Assembly: GCA_037130265.1 (NCBI GenBank)
Contig: JBAXTI010000001.1
Coordinates: forward strand, 98,092-162,091
Length of the DNA: 64,000 nucleotides
Source: a bacterium
GTDB lineage: Bacteria > Patescibacteriota > Minisyncoccia > Phycocordibacterales > JBBTRF01
Direction of reading: 5' to 3'
The translations under genes and the position numbers were made by a program. The notes under the pieces were generated by a model, which was given only the letters and a program-made list of their open reading frames with translations, was not told the origin of the DNA and ran no database searches. This document shows, one piece after another, positions 7,130-44,878 of the stretch (positions are counted from its first letter, which is position 1; every line of letters starts with the position of its first letter).

Positions 7130-7399
7130 ATGAATACTACCATTCAACTTCGTATCGATAAGGCGACCAAAGTAAGCGCTCAAAAGGTGCTTGCCGAGCT
7201 TGGCTTGGACATGTCTTCCGCCATGAAGCTCTTTCTCCGCACGGTGTCACGGACCAAATCGATTCCTTTCGAAATCCGCACGGTAAATGGCTTTACTCCT
7301 GCCCAGGAGGCGCGAATGCTCAAAGAGATTGCTTGGACCGAGAAGTATGGAAAAGGATACAAGACCGCTGAAGAATTAACAAAACACCTGCTCTCGTAA
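7130..7399 (+). CDS. dinJ: Type II antitoxin, RelB/DinJ family
   Basis: MNTTIQLRIDKATKVSAQKVLAELGLDMSSAMKLFLRTVSRTKSIPFEI matches the DinJ ribbon-helix-helix N-terminus (RIDEDLK..A..VL...GL..S.....L..V..E..LPF). Confidence 0.8.
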   Translation: MNTTIQLRIDKATKVSAQKVLAELGLDMSSAMKLFLRTVSRTKSIPFEIRTVNGFTPAQEARMLKEIAWTEKYGKGYKTAEELTKHLLS

Positions 7400-7402
7400 G
7401 TA

Positions 7403-7681
7403 ATGCTTGAAATAAGAGAGACGAAACAATTTAAAAAGCAATTCAAACGAGTTGCCCGATCGGGCGATTTCGATATGAGACTGTTCCATGCAGTGCTTAA
7501 TGTGTTGGCAAGAGGCGAATCTCTTGATGAAAAGTATCGAGATCACCAGCTTTCCGGTGACATGAAGGAGGCTCGAGAATGTCATCTAAAAGGTGATTTG
7601 TTGTTGGTGTATAAGATAAGAAAGGAAATTCTCGTTTTATCCCTTGTCGGCATTGGTAGCCACTCTGAACTCTTCGACTAA
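7403..7681 (+). CDS. yafQ: Type II toxin, YafQ family mRNA interferase
   Basis: YRDHQLSGDMKEARECHLKGDLLLVYKI...GSHSELF aligns with the YafQ core (YKDHPLQGSWKGYRDAHVEPDWILIYK...GTHAALF). Confidence 0.85.
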   Translation: MLEIRETKQFKKQFKRVARSGDFDMRLFHAVLNVLARGESLDEKYRDHQLSGDMKEARECHLKGDLLLVYKIRKEILVLSLVGIGSHSELFD

Positions 7682-31408: not shown

Positions 31409-31491
31409 GGGATAATGATAGCATGGGGAAGAATTTGAAAAATTGATAGAAAGACGTAGTGTTTTTTCTGCGAAGGTTTATAATTGTAGGA

Positions 31492-32322
31492 ATGTCAGAG
31501 CAAATTACCTCAACTGGCCACAATAAGGAGTTCGAGTCGATCAAAGAAATCGACGAAAACGGTATTGAGTTCTGGAGAGCCAGAAATCTATTTTCTTTGC
31601 TTGGGTATGCGACGTGGCAGGCTTTTGATGAGGTTGTTTTACGTGGTGCCAAAGCGGCCCTAAATAGCGGTCAGGTGGTGGAAAACCATTTTAGCCGGTT
31701 GACTAAAATGGTCGAGACAGGGTCTGGTGCTAGGCGAGAAGTTAAGGACTGGAAACTTGATCGCTATGCATGTTATTTGATCGCCCAGAATGGCGACTCA
31801 AAGATTCCGCAGATTGCCTTGGCTCAAACGTATTTTGCTATTCAGACACGAAGGCAGGAAATATTTGATACGTTGTCCGAAGCAGAGAAAAGGCTTTTTA
31901 TCCGCGGGGAGGTGGCTAGTGAAAACAAGAAATTGTTTAAGACCGCAAAGGAAGCGGGAGTTTCTCATTTTGGATTATTTAATGATGCCGGATACAAAGG
32001 TTTGTATGGTGCACCGCTCTCTGTTGTTGAGGCGAAGAAGGGTATTAAGAAAGGAGAATTATTAGATCGTGCTGGTGCGACAGAGCTTGCGGCTAATTTG
32101 TTTCGTATCACACAGACGGATGAAAAGCTGAAGAAGGGTGGTGTGAGGGGCGATGGTCCTGCCCAGAATGCCCATAACATGGTCGGCGGAAAGATTCGTC
32201 AGACGATAAAGGATATTGGTGGGGAATTGCCAGAAAATTTGAAGCCGGAGAAGCATATCAAAGAGGTTGAGAAAGATGTGAAGCAGTTAGGGAAAGGGAA
32301 GAAGCTTTTTGATAATAAATAA
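31492..32322 (+). CDS. dinD: DNA-damage-inducible protein D homolog (Bro-N/KilA-N-like N-terminus)
   Basis: Blocks RYACYLIAQNGD, TYFAIQTRRQE, EKRLFIRGE, GATELAANLFRITQTDEKLKK shared with E. coli DinD; ATG 31492 preceded by aggaa RBS. Confidence 0.8.
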   Translation: MSEQITSTGHNKEFESIKEIDENGIEFWRARNLFSLLGYATWQAFDEVVLRGAKAALNSGQVVENHFSRLTKMVETGSGARREVKDWKLDRYACYLIAQNGDSKIPQIALAQTYFAIQTRRQEIFDTLSEAEKRLFIRGEVASENKKLFKTAKEAGVSHFGLFNDAGYKGLYGAPLSVVEAKKGIKKGELLDRAGATELAANLFRITQTDEKLKKGGVRGDGPAQNAHNMVGGKIRQTIKDIGGELPENLKPEKHIKEVEKDVKQLGKGKKLFDNK

Positions 32323-33670: not shown

Positions 33671-33677
33671 TTTGTTG

Positions 33678-34069
33678 TGGAGATGGGAGGAATTGAACCC
33701 CCGTGCAGAAGAGTCTAGTGAATGGGTCTACGAAGGGTAGGGCGCTTCTATGTCTGCGGGGCAGACAATTCGCGTGTGCCGTTATGAAACGACCGAAAGG
33801 CGGCTCGCGCTATTCCCATGATCTCGAATCGGCGGCGGGACTCCGCTGATCCTATTCCACAAATATAGCGTCAGGACCGAACGGTGTGGAAACCATCCGG
33901 CTGGCGTCGCTTAGGCTTTAGCGTAAGCGAATGCAAAGTCGTTCGCACTTGCGTACGGAGACTTTACAGATCCAAGTTTTGCACTTAGAATTTTCAGCCT
34001 TTTTAAGAGTTACTGAAGCTCTCCTTCGCACATTCAAGAGATATTCTTCCGTCGATGCCTGGCATCCCC
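33678..34069 (-). ncRNA. ssrA: tmRNA (SsrA), about 392 nt
   Basis: Minus strand 5'-GGGGATGCCAGGCATCGACGG... and 3'-...GGGGGTTCAATTCCTCCCATCTCCAC (tRNA-like T-arm and acceptor); candidate tag ORF ...GCGAACGACTTTGCATTCGCTTACGCTAAAGCCTAA (ANDFAFAYAKA*); smpB immediately upstream. Confidence 0.85.
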
Positions 34070-34149: not shown

Positions 34150-34605
34150 TCAACGATCTCGGTACTCTCGGGCGACGTCGCGCGCAGACTGCTTCTTCTT
34201 CATCGATTCTCGCTTGTCGTGCTTCTTTTTGCCTTTCACGACGGCGATTTCTATCTTCAGTTTCCGACCCTTATTATACACCGAAACAGGCACTATTGTC
34301 AAACCCTGTTTCGACTCAATATTGGCCAATTCCTGAAGCTCTTTTTTACTCAGCAAGAGCTTGCGGATGCGAGCCTGATCAAAATCTTTTGGTGCGTTGA
34401 GGGGTTGAAAAGGCGGAATCTCGGTATTCATCAGAAAGGCCTCGCCACCGCGGATGGTGACGTAGCCGCCTTCGAGCTTGCCGAGCTTGGCGCGGACAGA
34501 CTTCACTTCGGTGCCGAGCAGCTCAATACCAGCCTCGTATTTCTCGAGGATTTCATAATCAAGGCCGATTTTTTTGTGCTGCAACAGCGCCATGGGTATC
34601 ATCAT
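34150..34605 (-). CDS. smpB: SsrA-binding protein
   Basis: GTEVKSVRAKLGKLEGGYVTIRGGEAFLMNTEIPPF...RKLLLSKKELQEL...GLTIVPVSVY...KGKKKHDKRE. Confidence 0.92.
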   Translation of the reverse strand: MMIPMALLQHKKIGLDYEILEKYEAGIELLGTEVKSVRAKLGKLEGGYVTIRGGEAFLMNTEIPPFQPLNAPKDFDQARIRKLLLSKKELQELANIESKQGLTIVPVSVYNKGRKLKIEIAVVKGKKKHDKRESMKKKQSARDVAREYRDR

Positions 34606-34732: not shown

Positions 34733-35323
34733 ATGAATGCAAGCCTGTTCCTCGCCACAAGTTTCGTGCTCGCGCTCCTCGGAATCCTCGCCTATACCAT
34801 TTGGTATCGGGAGAGCAAGCGCTTGATGCGCAAATGCAGAAACATCCTCCCGAGCGGTAGGGTGTGCGTTTGTGATCCTCGTCGGATTGGTCAAATCTAC
34901 CAAATGGTTCAGCCCTCCGGAACGGACCCGTTGTTTGATGGGACAAAGGTGCTTGCCCTGGTGCTTGCGCGTTGTCAGGTCACCGGTGATACGATAATCG
35001 CGAAGCATGAGCAGAAACATATCCATCCGATAAGTCGGCGATGGAAGATGTTCATGGAGCCAGTTGCTTACCGGCCAAATATTGAGTTTCTCCTCTCTGT
35101 TCGCGATCCTGTCACTGTTGTCCAGATGTTGGAGTTGATTAGGCTTTCCAATGGCAAGGATGCGACGACATTATTGGATGGCATCCTCCCGGATCCGCAG
35201 TCGGTGCCACAGCACTACATGGATCTTCGTGATGTTGTCGGTCGGCGACGCAAAGCTCGGCGCGATAAGGACGGAATAGGTCCATTAAAAAGCCCACGAC
35301 CGCTTCAAGGCCTCCTCGTATGA
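34733..35323 (+). CDS. Hypothetical protein with N-terminal TM helix (uncertain)
   Basis: 196-aa ORF between smpB and ftsH; competing antisense ORF overlaps smpB, so the plus ORF is preferred. Confidence 0.35.
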   Translation: MNASLFLATSFVLALLGILAYTIWYRESKRLMRKCRNILPSGRVCVCDPRRIGQIYQMVQPSGTDPLFDGTKVLALVLARCQVTGDTIIAKHEQKHIHPISRRWKMFMEPVAYRPNIEFLLSVRDPVTVVQMLELIRLSNGKDATTLLDGILPDPQSVPQHYMDLRDVVGRRRKARRDKDGIGPLKSPRPLQGLLV

Positions 35324-35430
35324 TCTGTTGCCCTCCCCTCAAACGCGTTCCTGTCATTGCACAGGGCCGCGTTTTTCTTTTTGGCGAGATTTTTTCTTCC
35401 TTTCTCCTCGAAAATCTGTATAATCACCCC

Positions 35431-37467
35431 ATGAATCAGATTCCATCCAACGAGCCAGCGGGCGCTCAAAAGCCACCCAAAATGCCGAAGGCACCAAAGA
35501 TAAAGCTGCCGAAGGGTGCAAAGGAGCCGAGTAGCTTTCTGTCGAACCTGCTCACAGTACTCGTGGTGCTTTTCCTGCTGACAGGCCTGTTTTCTGGTCT
35601 GGTGTCTTCTGGGGTAAAGACTGAAACAATTGCACTTTCCGAATTGGCGCAAGACGTGAATGCGCAGAAAGTGGCGGTGATTACGGTAAGTGGTAGTGAT
35701 CTCACGATTGAATACCAGAAGGTGAAGCCGACACCAGGCACAGGCGCTTCTGCGGCGGTGGCTGGTACGGCCGGTAGCGCAACCACTTCCACCGAAGTCG
35801 CGGCTGTCGTGAAAAAATCTAAAAAAGAAACTGATTCTTCTCTCACTGACACGCTCGCGCGATATGGTGCGACAGCGGAAAAGTTGAAGGCGGTGAAGAT
35901 TGAGATCAAAGACCCGAGCGGCTTTGGATATTGGGCGGGGAAGCTCCTTCCGGTACTCATCCCACTGCTCGGATTGCTCATTATCATCTGGTTTCTTTCG
36001 CGACAGATGCGTGGCGCGGGGATGCAGGCCATGTCTTTTGGTCAATCGAAGGCGCGCATGATTTTGCCGAGCGATGAAAAACAGCGAGTGAAGTTTAAGG
36101 ACGTGGCAGGTGCAAAGGAAGCGAAGCAAGAGCTTTCCGAGATTGTGGACTTTTTGAAGAATCCAAAGAAATTTTTTGAGATAGGTGCAGTGATTCCGAA
36201 GGGCATCATGCTCATGGGTGCGCCCGGTACTGGCAAGACCTTGCTCGCGCGGGCCGTGGCGGGTGAGGCGGGTGTGGCGTTCTTCTCAATCTCTGGTTCA
36301 GAGTTTGTGGAAATGTTTGTCGGTGTCGGCGCGTCTCGCGTGCGCGATTTGTTTAAGATGGCGAAGGAGGCCTCACCATCGATTATTTTCGTGGATGAAA
36401 TCGATGCGGTGGGTCGTGTTCGTGGTACCGGTGTGGGTGGTGGCAATGACGAGCGCGAGCAGACCTTGAACCAGATCCTCGTGGAGATGGACGGTTTCGA
36501 ACCAACTGAAAAGGTGATTGTGATGGCGGCGACCAACCGTCCTGATGTGCTTGATCCTGCATTGCTTCGACCGGGCCGATTTGATCGACGGGTGACTATC
36601 GACCTGCCAGATCGTGGCGACCGCGAGGAAATTTTGAAGATCCATTCAGCGAAGAAGCCGTTTGCTGAAGATGTAAATTTGAAAGTGATTGCGGAACGTA
36701 CCCCAGGCTTTTCTGGTGCCGATTTGTATTCGCTCATGAACGAAGGTGCTATTTTGGCAGCCCGCGAAGAGCGCAAGAAGGTGGCGCAGTTTGATCTTAT
36801 ACGTGCGATCGAAAAGGTGATGCTTGGTCCGGAGCGTCGCAGTCATTTGTTGTCGAAGAAAGAAAAAGAGGTCACAGCGTATCATGAGGCGGGTCACGCA
36901 CTCATTTCGTCGATCTTGCCTCATGCTGATCCTGTACACAAGATATCGATCATCTCTCGTGGTCGCGCAGCAGGATACACTTTGCATTTGCCGCTCGAAG
37001 ATCGCAAGATGCAATCGAAGAAAGAATTTTTGGATGATATCGCGGTGTCATTGGGAGGATACGTGGTGGAGAAAATGGTGTTTGGCGATATCACGACCGG
37101 CCCATCGAATGACCTGCAGGTGTCTACCGCTTTGGCTCGCGATATGGTGACGAAGTATGGTATGTCCGACAAGTTGGGTCCAATCGCTCTCGAAGGTTCC
37201 GGTGGAAGGGCGTTGTTTGGTCGCGGTGTTGAAGACAAGGAGTATTCTGAGCGAGTGAGTGCAGAGATCGACGGGGAAGTTGCGCGCATTATGAGCGAGG
37301 CCCGCGCGAAGGCGGAGGAAGTGGTCACCAAGCATCGCGCTGCTCTCGATGCGATCGCTGTGCGGCTGGTGGAAGTGGAGACGATCGAGCGAGAGGAATA
37401 TGAGAAGCTCGTGTTGGCGTTTGGAATTGTCGCAAAAAAGAAGGATATCATTGCGCCGACGGTGTAG
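35431..37467 (+). CDS. ftsH: ATP-dependent zinc metalloprotease FtsH
   Basis: Two N-terminal TM segments, AAA Walker A GAPGTGKT, Walker [10 protein letters not shown], zinc motif HEAGHAL. Confidence 0.95.
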
Positions 37468-38038: not shown

Positions 38039-38068
38039 GGTTGCTATCCGACATGTTCTCGCTCAAAA

Positions 38069-38102
38069 CCCGCCGTTGCAAGACGGCGGGTTTTTCTTTT
38101 TT
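38069..38102 (+). terminator. Rho-independent terminator
   Basis: cccgccgt-tgcaa-gacggcggg plus tttttctttttt. Confidence 0.75.
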
Positions 38103-38112
38103 GTAATGTCGT

Positions 38113-38141
38113 TTGCGGATACCTCCACGTTCCTTTATGAT
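38113..38141 (+). promoter_or_regulatory. Promoter for tRNA-Ile (ttgcgg-17-tatgat)
   Basis: Spacing exactly 17; about 70-nt leader follows. Confidence 0.45.
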
Positions 38142-38219
38142 ACAACTATGCGCCCGTATACTATGCGGGCGCTGCGTTCGGAACGAAAGTCTGAGCCAGC
38201 TCGCCTTTGTTCCTCACTT

Positions 38220-38292
38220 GCGCCCGTAGCTCAGTTGGTAGAGCAGGTGTCTTATACACACCTGGCCGGGGGTTCGAATCCCTCCGGGCGCA
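38220..38292 (+). tRNA. tRNA-Ile, anticodon UAU (TAT)
   Basis: Cloverleaf GCGCCCG/CGGGCGC acceptor, GCTC-AGTTGGTA-GAGC D-arm, anticodon stem GGTGT/ACACC with loop CTTATAC (U33, A37), T-arm GGGGG-TTCGAAT-CCCTC; CCA not encoded. Confidence 0.8.
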
Positions 38293-38309
38293 CATTTTTT
38301 CAGACGAGG

Positions 38310-40607
38310 TTATTCAAAATGAATCTTCTCTCCCGCGGTGGCGCGTTTTGTGAGGCTGTCGCGGAGAAGGGGGAAGGCGGAGAGGGAGTCGTCGGTGTCG
38401 ATGAGCCGCGCGGCCTCGGCGCGCGCGGCTTCCACCATCTTCAGATTTTGCAACGCTTCCATGGCGACGTCGGTGATGCCCCATTGTCGATGGCCGTACA
38501 GTTGGCCTGATCCACGAAATTTCAGATCATATTCTGCCAATTCAAAACCGTTCTTCGCTGTCTTCAGCGCCTTGAGCCGATCCACTGTTTTCTCCGATTT
38601 GCTTTCGGCGAAGACATAACAATACGCTTGGTGATTGCTGCGGATGACGCGGCCGCGGAGCTGGTGCAGTTGTGCCAAACCAAAGCGCTCGCCACCCTCG
38701 ATGATGATCGACGTCGCATTCGGCACATTCACACCCACCTCCACCACCGAAGTGGCGCAGAGAATGTCGATCCTGTGTGCTTTGAAATCAAGCATCACCT
38801 CGTCTTTCGCTTTCGGCGTCATCTTGCTGTGCAAAATACCGAGTGTGTATTCTTGAAACACTTTTTCTTTCAACCGCTTGGCTTCTTCGGTCACCGATTT
38901 GGCATTGACCGCAGCTTCTTTGTCGGGGTCAGGCTCGTTGATGCGCGGGCAGATGACGTATGCCTGCCTTCCAGCTTGCAGCTCAGTGCGGATCTTTTCA
39001 TACACAGCATTTCGGCCGTTTGGTAGGACGATCTCGGTGATGATCGGCTTGCGGCCCATTGGCATTTGGTCGAGCAGGGTGAGATCGAGGTCGCCATACA
39101 AAGTGAGGGCGAGCGTTCGAGGAATCGGCGTTGCGGTCATTGAGAGGAGGTGTGGGGCCACGGCCGCGGAGGGTGCGATCGCGACTGACGCATCATTTTT
39201 CAACGCAAGTTTTTGGCGCTGCGAGGTGCCGAAGCGATGTTGCTCGTCAATGATGACATACGCCAAATGTTTGAATTTCACGGCCTTCTGAATGAGTGCG
39301 TGGGTGCCGATGAGGATGGGAATCTCGCCACTCTCGACCCATTTCAGCAGCTGGGTGCGGGAAATGTCAGTCCAATTTTGACGGCCTTTTTCCGCGGCGA
39401 TGCGGGCATTCGAAGCGACCTTCGAGGGGAATTTTCGGCAGCCAGAGCCGGTGATCAGGCCCACCTGCAGGCCGAGGTGAGTGAAATAATTGATGAAAGA
39501 TTCGAAGTGCTGCGTCGCGAGGATTTCGGTGGGGCACATATAGGCGACTTGGAGATTGCCGAACGTCTGTGGAATGCGCTTGCCGTCTTTCACCATGCTC
39601 GGGCGCGAAGTCACGATGGCATAGACGGTCGCGGCTGCCACGGCGGTCTTGCCGGAACCCACATCACCCTCCAACAGTCGCGACATCGGTTTGCCACTTT
39701 TGAAATCGGCGAGGATGGTGTGGATTGCGGTGTGTTGCGCCTCGGTAGCTTTGAATGGAAAGCGACCGATGAAGTCAGCGAGTTCTTGCTCGGTCTTTTC
39801 GATGATGAAGCCGTTGAGTTTTTGATACTGCTTGCGGTCGCGTTGCTTTTGTAGCTGGATGAAAAAGATCTCTTCGAAAGCGAAGCGTTTGCGTGCGGCG
39901 AGCGCGTCACTTCCTTTTTGCGGCGCGTGGATCCAGATGAGGGCGGTGCGCAGTGAGGGGAGATTGTATTTTTCGATGATAGCGGTCGGGAGGGGATCGA
40001 TGAGGGTTTCCAAAATACCGGATTTGAAGACTCTCTGAATGGCGTGATACATCCAATTGGAAGTGATGCCGCGTGATTCGGGATATACCGGATACAAGGT
40101 GTGGGCCTCGCCGTCGGCGCCGAACAGAGAATCGCCGACGGCGATCGGCACCTTTGCGATGGCTTCGATTTTTGGATTACTCAAATACAATTCGCCGCGC
40201 ACGGTCGGTTCGGCGATCACTTCGCCGTCTGCATTCTTTTTCCGCTTCTCACTCACCTTACCTTCGACACGCACAAAGGCACCCTCGGCTGTCATCTTCG
40301 CGAGGTACGGCTGGTTGAACCACACGGCTTTGATCCGGCCAGTGTCATCTTCAATCGTTCCCTCTGCCATGGCGATGTGACTACGAAAACCCTTGCTGGT
40401 TTTCAGACCGGTGATGCGACCGAAGATCACTGCGACGTCACCTTTGGCGAGATTGGCGATTGGGCGCATGTCGGACACGTCACCGTATCGTGCGGGGAAG
40501 TGGTAGAGGAGGTCTTCGGCGGTGCGGAGGCCAAGTTTCGCCAGTGCCTTCTTCTGAGGCTCTAGTAGGCGCTGGAATTCGGTGATGGGAGTCTGCAAAT
40601 ACATCAC
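38310..40607 (-). CDS. recG: ATP-dependent DNA helicase RecG
   Basis: Wedge domain, helicase motifs GDVGSGKT, DEQHRFG, QLRGRVIRS. Confidence 0.93.
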   Translation of the reverse strand: MMYLQTPITEFQRLLEPQKKALAKLGLRTAEDLLYHFPARYGDVSDMRPIANLAKGDVAVIFGRITGLKTSKGFRSHIAMAEGTIEDDTGRIKAVWFNQPYLAKMTAEGAFVRVEGKVSEKRKKNADGEVIAEPTVRGELYLSNPKIEAIAKVPIAVGDSLFGADGEAHTLYPVYPESRGITSNWMYHAIQRVFKSGILETLIDPLPTAIIEKYNLPSLRTALIWIHAPQKGSDALAARKRFAFEEIFFIQLQKQRDRKQYQKLNGFIIEKTEQELADFIGRFPFKATEAQHTAIHTILADFKSGKPMSRLLEGDVGSGKTAVAAATVYAIVTSRPSMVKDGKRIPQTFGNLQVAYMCPTEILATQHFESFINYFTHLGLQVGLITGSGCRKFPSKVASNARIAAEKGRQNWTDISRTQLLKWVESGEIPILIGTHALIQKAVKFKHLAYVIIDEQHRFGTSQRQKLALKNDASVAIAPSAAVAPHLLSMTATPIPRTLALTLYGDLDLTLLDQMPMGRKPIITEIVLPNGRNAVYEKIRTELQAGRQAYVICPRINEPDPDKEAAVNAKSVTEEAKRLKEKVFQEYTLGILHSKMTPKAKDEVMLDFKAHRIDILCATSVVEVGVNVPNATSIIIEGGERFGLAQLHQLRGRVIRSNHQAYCYVFAESKSEKTVDRLKALKTAKNGFELAEYDLKFRGSGQLYGHRQWGITDVAMEALQNLKMVEAARAEAARLIDTDDSLSAFPLLRDSLTKRATAGEKIHFE

Positions 40608-43596: not shown

Positions 43597-44436
43597 GTGT
43601 CGGTGGAGACGACCAAGATCTCATTATTCGAAGGGAAAAAAGTACGTAAGACCATTCATTGTGATGAATGGTGGTTTTCTGTTGTTGATATAGTCGAAGC
43701 TCTCACGGACTCAACGAATCCACGCGTATATTGGGCAGTGATGAAAGATCGCTTGGAGAAAGATGAGAAAGTTCAACTGTTTACATTTTGTAAACAGTTG
43801 AAATTGGAGGCGTCTGATGGCAAAATGCGAGAAACTGATTGTGCGAATACCGAAGGGGTATTTCGTATTATTCAGTCTATTCCATCGCCGAAAGCGGAGC
43901 CATTTAAACGTTGGTTGGCACAGGTTGGGTACGAGCGTGTCAAGGAGATCGAAAATCCAGAATTGGCCCAGGACAGAATGAAGGCGTTGTATGAAAAGAA
44001 GGGTTATTCAAAGGGCTGGATCGACAAGCGGATTCGTGGCATTGCGATACGGCAGAGTTTGACTGATGAGTGGAAAGAAAGGGGGATTTTTGGCGAACAA
44101 GATTACGCTATCTTGACCGCTGAGATTTCTAAGGCGACATTCGGCATGACTCCGAGCGAGTACAAGGAGTACAAGCACTTGAAAAAGGAAAATTTGCGTG
44201 ATCACATGACCGACTTGGAGCTTATCTTTACGATGCTTGGAGAGCGGGTGACGACTGAGATATCGGAGATTGAGAAGCCGGAAACGTTTGATAAAAATAA
44301 GCAGGTGGCGAAGCGTGGTGGTAGGGTTGCGGGGAATGCGAGAAAGCAGACGGAGAAGGAAATTGGGAAGAGTGTGGTGTCGAAGAAGAATTTTTTGGGG
44401 AAAGGGGATGTTGGGGTGTTGGAGAAAGAGCTTTGA
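43597..44436 (+). CDS. Bro-N domain protein (phage antirepressor-like N-terminus) with C-terminal charged domain
   Basis: ISLFEGKKVRKTIHCDEWWFSVVDIVEALTDSTNP...GVFRIIQSIPSPKAEPFKRWLAQV is a typical Bro-N/KilA-N-like pattern; GTG start. Confidence 0.7.
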   Translation: MSVETTKISLFEGKKVRKTIHCDEWWFSVVDIVEALTDSTNPRVYWAVMKDRLEKDEKVQLFTFCKQLKLEASDGKMRETDCANTEGVFRIIQSIPSPKAEPFKRWLAQVGYERVKEIENPELAQDRMKALYEKKGYSKGWIDKRIRGIAIRQSLTDEWKERGIFGEQDYAILTAEISKATFGMTPSEYKEYKHLKKENLRDHMTDLELIFTMLGERVTTEISEIEKPETFDKNKQVAKRGGRVAGNARKQTEKEIGKSVVSKKNFLGKGDVGVLEKEL

Positions 44437-44440
44437 ATTT

Positions 44441-44530
44441 TGGCGGAAAGAGTGGGATTCGAACCCACGGTCCGTTTAACGGGACGACGGTTTAGTAAAC
44501 CGTTGATTTAAACCACTCATCCATCTTTCC
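44441..44530 (-). tRNA. Class II tRNA, Ser-like, anticodon ACU (A34), CCA encoded
   Basis: GGAAAGA/TCTTTCC acceptor, 3-bp D-stem with GAGTGGTTTAA loop, anticodon stem ACGGT/ACCGT with loop TTACTAA, long variable arm, discriminator G. Confidence 0.7.
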
Positions 44531-44719: not shown

Positions 44720-44807
44720 GCGGAAGGGGGGGGATTCGAACCCCCGAGGGTTGTTTAGACCCTGCCTCTTTAGCAAAGAGGTACATTCGACCGCTCTGAC
44801 ACCCCTC
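44720..44807 (-). tRNA. tRNA-Ser, anticodon GCU
   Basis: GGAGGGG/CCCTTCC acceptor, D-loop GAGCGGTCGAA, anticodon loop TTGCTAA, long variable arm, T-arm GGGGG-TTCGAAT-CCCCC, discriminator G. Confidence 0.8.
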
Positions 44808-44878
44808 CGTGGACATTGGCGATGATAGCATATTTTCCTGCGTTTATGCCAGTCTTTGTCGGACTAGCAGGGGGTATT

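Follow-up and report, generated by a model that had tools for sequence, protein, structure and literature searches.

The 73 nt at positions 38220–38292 (+) of the window (the whole stretch of 64,000 nt of DNA that was analyzed) are a genuine tRNAIle gene with the UAU anticodon encoded in the DNA. The reading that we favor, and consider fairly probable, is that this tRNA is the AUA decoder of a CPR bacterium, most probably its sole one, with no requirement for TilS. Telling AUA (Ile) apart from AUG (Met) is among the well-known difficulties of the genetic code, and the textbook solution in bacteria is lysidine. For the Patescibacteria (CPR), a UAU-tRNAIle gene is ordinary and standard, and the clade-wide pattern looks under-described.

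ARAGORN assigns a tRNAIle with anticodon tat at 38220–38293 (+). Rfam RF00005 aligns end to end with 38220–38292 (+) (model positions 1–71 of 71) at 73.5 bits (gathering score 29) and E = 3.5e-14. The original prediction of a tRNAIle with a genomic UAU anticodon is confirmed, and its coordinates are exact. The minimum free energy fold is a perfect cloverleaf at −33.8 kcal/mol (z = −2.96), equalled by one of 200 shuffles. The acceptor stem, as read from the sequence, is GCGCCCG/CGGGCGC; it is followed by TA, the D-arm GCTC-AGTTGGTA-GAGC, a single A, and the anticodon arm GGTGT-CTTATAC-ACACC, the loop of which had been given without error (C32, U33, U34, A35, U36, A37, C38). The variable loop is TGGCC, the T-arm is GGGGG-TTCGAAT-CCCTC, and the discriminator is A73. 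The bases directly 3′ of A73 are CATTTTTT, and CCA is absent from the gene. The possibility, raised at the outset, of a pseudo-tRNA or of a different fold or anticodon is contradicted by ARAGORN, by Rfam, by the cloverleaf, and by the covariation within the family described below.

The UAU anticodon lies in a 7-nt loop between U33 and a purine (A37), as in a reader of AUA. Position 34 is a T in the gene and not the C34 (gene anticodon CAT) of a lysidine substrate. An A37 that follows U36 is the usual site of t6A. Outside the anticodon, the Ile identity elements A73, C4-G69, and U12-A23 are present, together with C5-G68. With A37, the first three fit the E. coli Ile identity set that Nureki reportedly defined in 1994. 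The pair U29-A41 and residue C38 depart from that set (C29-G41 and A38); as the set refers to an IleRS of bacterial type, it is possibly not the relevant one in this case. The description of the scaffold as Ile2-like is reasonable, in view of A73, C4-G69, C5-G68, U12-A23, and C32/C38; C38 and the same D-arm are found also in TilS-linked tRNA(CAU) genes.

A pattern made of the D-arm and the CUUAUA loop was scanned over 185,579 species-representative genomes and gave at least 120 matches; ~100 of the 120 listed are MAGs of Patescibacteria (CPR). ARAGORN calls tRNAIle(tat) in 119 of the 120 matches listed. The CPR labels among the matches listed include Kaiser-, Taylor-, Nomura-, Vogel-, Wolfe-, Adler-, Lloyd-, and Staskawiczbacteria, Paceibacteria, WWE3, and Woese-, Beckwith-, and Kuenenbacteria, with many entries labeled by their submitters as “Candidatus Saccharibacteria.” Outside CPR, the matches listed comprise ~10 records from Streptomyces and small numbers from Proteobacteria, Bacteroidota, and Clostridia. 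In one related genome (L010), all 73 nt of the tRNA are identical, with flanking DNA 82%–87% identical.

This distribution bears on the statement, made in the original prediction, that a UAU-tRNAIle occurs only in a few reduced genomes. The statement fits the literature. Bacteria without tilS have been described in nine species from three clades, together with a small number of species that have both systems and with 371 tDNAIle(TAT) from metagenomes, of unknown origin (Taniguchi 2013; PMC3575796). In tRNADB-CE, UAU-tRNAIle are found in 19 species, and a 2026 preprint calls the UAU-tRNAIle a “rare case.” A paper on tRNA introns in Patescibacteria gives tRNA counts per amino acid and not per anticodon. 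Our literature search yielded no paper linking lysidine or TilS with Patescibacteria/CPR. The statement is contradicted by the at least 120 matches of the scan, with ~100 from Patescibacteria, and by the conserved synteny ftsH–tRNA–recG.

The synteny was assessed by tblastn of the window proteins against the 120 UAU loci listed. In the window, the upstream neighbor of the tRNA gene is ftsH (35320–37467, +; Pfam FtsH_ext/AAA/Peptidase_M41) and the convergent downstream neighbor is recG (38310–40607, −; Pfam RecG_wedge/DEAD/Helicase_C). Among the 120 UAU loci listed, ftsH adjoins the tRNA in 70 and recG in 60–62; at least one of the two is present in 86 and both are present in 44. The smpB gene is near the tRNA in 31–33 of these loci, with the smpB–ftsH adjacency kept in ~31. 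From these shared neighbors, the order smpB<-ftsH->tRNAIle(UAU)<-recG is an old arrangement, inherited vertically.

Within the tRNA itself, 97 distinct CPR copies were aligned. Standard pairs occupy 99.7% of the stem cells, and in 16 of the 17 variable pairs both partners are substituted. Covariation scores 0.778 in the alignment and 0.174 in shuffles (none of 500 reaches 0.778), and controls with slid partners stay at or below 0.13. Positions 8–25 and 32–37 were fixed by the search pattern, so that the invariance there (including T34 in all 97 copies) is uninformative. At two positions left free in the pattern, A73 is present in 97 of 98 and C38 in 95 of 98, and CCA is encoded in only ~20% of the copies. 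Judged from these substitutions, the family is under purifying selection.

For the meaning of AUA, FtsH and RecG were aligned from ~50 UAU-bearing genomes and the columns holding AUA were scored. Over 1159 AUA codons, I accounts for 52% of the residues of the other sequences in those columns, V for 18%, L for 13%, and M for 3%, a profile indistinguishable from that of AUU/AUC columns. AUA thus corresponds to Ile, and an Ile decoder is needed. In the ftsH of the window, three of the four AUA codons fall in Ile-dominated columns (I = 49/52, 42/52, and 32/52) and the fourth falls in an insertion specific to the window. The frequency of AUA, proposed in the original prediction as a check, is low in the window: 29 of 12,021 codons, or 2.4 per 1000 (3.8% of the Ile codons). 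In EF-Tu and the ribosomal proteins, it is 0.9 per 1000 (3/3,188 codons). Clade-wide, in ftsH and recG, AUA makes up ~24% of the Ile codons.

Neither a scan of ORFs for the SGGxDS PP-loop nor tblastn with E. coli TilS gave any tilS in ~73 kb (the window and its flanks, with ~9 kb on the right) or in the 120 UAU loci listed. In 30 of these loci, the sequence extends 1.2 kb or more upstream of ftsH; tilS is absent there from all 30, and smpB is present in 20. Pfam scans of 35 ORFs of the window gave no match for tilS or ileS, and tblastn with E. coli IleRS gave no ileS; the gene is absent from the window and from its flanks. Even at E = 0.1, no Pfam family matches the ORFs around the ftsH of the window. 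Among the contexts of at least 120 FtsH homologs listed, no tilS-bearing CPR context was found; all of the homologs among the matches listed are close relatives from Paceibacteria, with 70%–100% identity. The closest named ones among the matches listed (74%–77% identity) are from Candidatus Taylorbacteria, Paceibacterota, and “Patescibacteria group.” A syntenic C34 ancestor in CPR, with the order ftsH–tRNA(CAU)–recG, was not found among the matches listed in a scan of metagenomes (at least 120).

As a positive control, the same tblastn was run on 120 listed loci obtained from metagenomes with the C34 version of the pattern. TilS occurs beside a tRNA(CAU) and ftsH in 6 of the 120 control loci listed, as confirmed by Pfam PF01171. 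These clusters have the order ileS (DUF5915 type)–tRNA(CAU, C38)–tilS–ftsH and lie on actinobacteria-like contigs with 69% GC. Contigs with this order are L170 (1–5133), L192, L194, L139, L157, L245, L143, and L203; in them, the presumed lysidine-substrate tRNA adjoins the genes of the modifying enzyme and of the synthetase.

An order tilS–(hpt)–ftsH is widespread in Firmicutes and Actinobacteria. The linkage of tilS with ftsH holds in some phyla only, so that an empty slot upstream of ftsH is weak evidence. Within CPR, the published annotation of Southlakia epibionticum, a cultured Saccharibacterium, places TilS (SEML1_0730) immediately upstream of FtsH (SEML1_0729) and includes a single tRNAIle (PMC10633639). 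If the submitter labels “Saccharibacteria” are correct, UAU-tRNAIle and TilS may coexist within that class. For the class Paceibacteria, IleRS with DUF5915 appears in parts of the annotation tables of two organisms from methanogenic enrichments, the isolate Minisyncoccus archaeiphilus and the MAG PMX_810, and those same parts contain neither K04075 nor PF01171. A “tRNA(Ile)-lysidine synthase” label that does appear in those parts of the Minisyncoccus and PMX tables was discarded, because Prokka had given this name wrongly to an N-acetyl sugar amidotransferase. The E. coli IleRS carries zf-FPG_IleRS and not DUF5915 (Pfam). The DUF5915-type IleRS occurs with TilS in the control loci and is thus permissive for UAU decoding, not diagnostic of it.

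These searches weigh directly on the possibility that the UAU tRNA is an auxiliary reader of AUA, with TilS and a tRNAIle2(CAU) encoded elsewhere. The genome measures at least 464 kb, of which the ~73 kb searched are a minority, and both genes could lie outside the part searched. Dual systems do exist, in Lactobacillus casei, Cyanothece PCC 7424, and Ferrimonas balearica (PMC3575796); TilS is reported in ~98% of the bacterial genomes surveyed and is described as evolutionarily stable, and the cultured Saccharibacterium has it. Some WWE3/Microgenomates-like loci also have CAU tRNAs of ambiguous identity close to the UAU tRNA. Against such redundancy, the search that was positive in the control loci found no TilS in the UAU loci listed or in the ~73 kb, and the slot upstream of ftsH, filled by TilS in Southlakia and in the control loci, lacks tilS in 30 of 30 UAU genomes. 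The absence of K04075 from the available part of the Minisyncoccus table goes in the same direction. The clade-wide purifying selection, the fixed location, and the share of AUA among the Ile codons are more in keeping with an essential decoder than with a dispensable one. We therefore take an auxiliary role to be unlikely, although with an appreciable chance of being correct.

Two other readings deny either the identity or the residence of the gene, and the data leave them very little room. The D- and T-arms are generic, being common to tRNAs for Lys, Val, and Met (they were seen in Val tRNAs), and CPR lineages are known for changes of the code (PMC8629427); a Lys-like scaffold could then have acquired a new anticodon by mutation and accept Lys or Met, or AUA could be reassigned. 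The AUA columns, over 1159 codons, have the profile of the AUU/AUC columns, and this test led us to reject a non-Ile identity; A73, C4-G69, U12-A23, and A37 moreover fit the Ile identity set. Residue A35 abolishes the anticodon determinant U35 of LysRS, which counts against a Lys identity. A charging other than with Ile is, accordingly, very improbable. Still more improbable is that the gene is a pseudo-tRNA, or that a phage or mobile element carried it in as an accessory tRNA, despite two Bro-N genes within 7 kb and the accessory tRNAIle(UAU) known from plasmids and chromosome arms of Streptomyces. Against this stand the high Rfam score and the perfect cloverleaf; the chromosomal neighbors ftsH, recG, and smpB are the same in 86 of the 120 genomes listed, compensatory substitutions extend over the family, and an identical tRNA is kept in a species with 82%–87% DNA identity. 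Synteny and covariation together effectively refute a pseudogene or a phage-borne gene.

We return to the favored reading, an AUA decoder without lysidine, and to the way in which the gene could be expressed. A hairpin with a 13-pair stem (seven G-C pairs) followed by TCTTTTTTGT resembles an intrinsic terminator at 38065–38094 (+); it would end the upstream ftsH unit, and the tRNA is thus probably a separate transcription unit. About 80 nt upstream of the tRNA, at 38113–38141 (+), a promoter-like element is apparent from the sequence, with TTGCGG and TATGAT separated by 17 nt. Both hexamers and their spacing are identical in L010, where the 17-nt spacer differs at several positions. A strict scan for the promoter consensus did not call the element at 38113–38141, which we infer to be the promoter of the tRNA. 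At the 3′ end, a T6 run (38295–38300, +) starts two bases past A73 and, with the T-arm/acceptor helix, gives a terminator-like end.

The presumed 5′ leader contains a hairpin, GCGCCCGTAT-ACT-ATGCGGGCGC (38150–38172, +), the arms of which correspond to the two strands of the acceptor stem of the tRNA. An imperfect version is present in L010 alone; the upstream regions of 114 other tRNAs were examined and have no such hairpin. A conserved regulatory element of the family was considered and rejected, the hairpin being restricted to the window and (imperfectly) L010; it could be the remnant of a partial duplication, or a processing or decoy structure.

In the mechanism that we propose, a promoter of its own, between ftsH and recG, would drive transcription of the tRNA, RNase P would trim the 5′ leader of ~70 nt with its acceptor-mimicking hairpin, and the CCA-adding enzyme would supply CCA post-transcriptionally, as none is encoded. 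Charging would be by a type-2 IleRS (eukaryote-like and bearing DUF5915) that presumably tolerates U34. On the ribosome, U34 would pair directly with the third-position A of AUA, making unnecessary the conversion of C34 to lysidine by TilS, on which the tRNAIle2(CAU) of ordinary bacteria depends. The avoidance of AUG could rely on an unmodified U34 with discrimination by the ribosome (as in Mycoplasma mobile) or on a modification of U34. The gene would be old, vertically inherited, and standard across the CPR radiation. On sequence grounds, TilS-independent decoding is plausible but unproven, and we infer that tilS and tRNAIle2(CAU) are absent genome-wide.

A broader and more tentative proposal, to which we give slightly less than an even chance, concerns the Paceibacteria and perhaps most Patescibacteria/CPR, with exceptions such as the Saccharimonadia. 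These organisms would have lost TilS and tRNAIle2(CAU) and would read AUA with a UAU tRNA charged by a type-2 IleRS, the ftsH-linked tRNA being the successor of an ancestral module tRNAIle2(CAU)–tilS–ftsH.

Several known systems offer points of comparison. In Mycoplasma mobile, which has a small reduced genome, a genomic UAU-tRNAIle likewise reads AUA, with A37 and no lysidine expected (PMC3575796). There, the absence of tilS is proven on a complete genome, U34 is unmodified, and the ribosome rejects AUG. The IleRS of M. mobile is of the bacterial type, with Arg865 in place of a conserved Trp, whereas the CPR relatives from enrichments have a type-2 (DUF5915) IleRS in the available parts of their annotation. 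The present gene, moreover, is from another phylum and is conserved across a very large radiation instead of being confined to one species. Bifidobacterium and Neorickettsia combine a UAU-tRNAIle with a eukaryote-type IleRS, as is likely in Paceibacteria, and both lack tilS (PMC3575796), but these lineages are unrelated to the CPR host.

With the canonical tRNAIle2(CAU) and TilS, the gene shares the role of a minor Ile tRNA for the rare AUA, the elements A73, C4-G69, and C5-G68, and, with the TilS-linked genes, C32/C38 and the D-arm. The linkage to ftsH is also common to both, as seen in the ileS–tRNA(CAU)–tilS–ftsH controls and in the tilS–ftsH of Southlakia. On the other hand, T34 leaves no cytidine as a substrate for TilS, the tRNA is downstream of ftsH, and no tilS is nearby. 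In the dual-system bacteria, and with the tRNAIle1(UAU) that suppresses tilS in Bacillus subtilis, a UAU-tRNAIle can read AUA in organisms that use lysidine (PMC3575796; PMC3919564); those cases are sporadic species or laboratory mutants, whereas in CPR a whole radiation has the gene, fixed and in a syntenic position. The tRNAIle(UAU) of eukaryotes (with ψAψ) and of Nanoarchaeum and Korarchaeum also have an encoded UAU and an IleRS of eukaryotic/archaeal type. All of these belong to other domains of life, and the eukaryotic ones differ also in their introns and in the pseudouridines at positions 34 and 36.

With at least 100 species-level CPR genomes having a syntenic and covarying UAU tRNA, and no tilS in the slot used by relatives, a major branch of bacteria would seem to use the solution held to be exceptional. 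The kind of system is already known; what the literature searched apparently lacks is a description of the trait as general throughout a huge radiation and as syntenic with ftsH. If TilS and tRNAIle2(CAU) are indeed lost, this would be by far the largest lysidine-free bacterial radiation, in contradiction with the statements on a “rare case” and on the stability of TilS. Cultured Paceibacteria, such as Minisyncoccus, would then be a natural system for the study of AUG avoidance by a U34 tRNA. TilS is one of the GTDB bac120 markers; it would, in that event, be a biased phylogenetic marker and a poor drug target in the CPR clade.

The window is chromosomal DNA with a gene content that fits a CPR genome and a GC content of 50.6%. 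Together with the names of the FtsH homologs, this places the host among the CPR/Patescibacteria of the Paceibacteria (Parcubacteria) type. It contains the EF-G/EF-Tu/S10-spc ribosomal operon with secY-adk-map, NDK, a sortase, RNase J, tmRNA, smpB, ftsH, recG, UDG, a type IV pilus cluster, ligA, gatCA, and many ORFs without a Pfam family. The tmRNA (Rfam 87.4 bits) and smpB are at 33675–34069 (−) and 34150–34605 (−), divergent from ftsH. A RelB antitoxin/YafQ-ParE toxin pair is present at ~7130–7681 (+), within the S10 operon between rplB and rpsS (L125, 4642–5193). The two Bro-N proteins, at 31459–32322 (+) and 43597–44436 (+), are amid housekeeping genes, one of them adjoining a pair of tRNASer genes. 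Proteins with a Bro-N domain are mostly those of phages and mobile elements. Elsewhere, one close FtsH homolog (P0096, 1079 aa) contains PF14528 and PF14890, of the intein/LAGLIDADG type, which indicates an ftsH interrupted by an intein in a related CPR genome.

Two observations concern other UAU-tRNAIle genes met in the scan. The Streptomyces sequences, on plasmids or chromosome arms (L004, 3053–3572; L022, 5680–6111; L073, 1352–1994; and ~7 more), form a different family with the loop CTTATAA, a longer variable loop, and, often, a tRNALeu(UAA) alongside; they look like accessory decoders of rare A/T-ending codons in high-GC genomes. In a Patescibacteria MAG, the 5′ half of a tRNAIle(UAU), stopping just past the anticodon, lies 68 nt upstream of an intact copy (L011, 1176–1250). 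This half gene could be a decayed duplicate or the scar of a rearrangement.

The window contains three tRNAs according to ARAGORN: Ile-UAU, Ser-ACU, and Ser-GCU. The tRNASer(ACU) is next to the normal tRNASer(GCU), the two genes being at 44441–44530 (−) and 44720–44808 (−); the tRNASer(ACU) has A34, the anticodon loop TTACTAA, G73, an encoded CCA, and an Rfam score of 58.5 bits. Anticodons starting with A, apart from Arg-ACG, are very rare in bacteria (tRNADB-CE has three for Ser), and we found no literature on a tRNASer(ACU). CPR reportedly have no tRNAArg(ACG), which suggests a loss of TadA; A34 may thus stay unmodified, in a dedicated reader of AGU. The tRNASer(ACU) may be more unusual than the tRNAIle(UAU). 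The same ACU/GCU pair of tRNASer genes is present in four other CPR loci (L008, 4098–4368; L042, 980–1224; L045, 7529–7798; and L079, 397–645).
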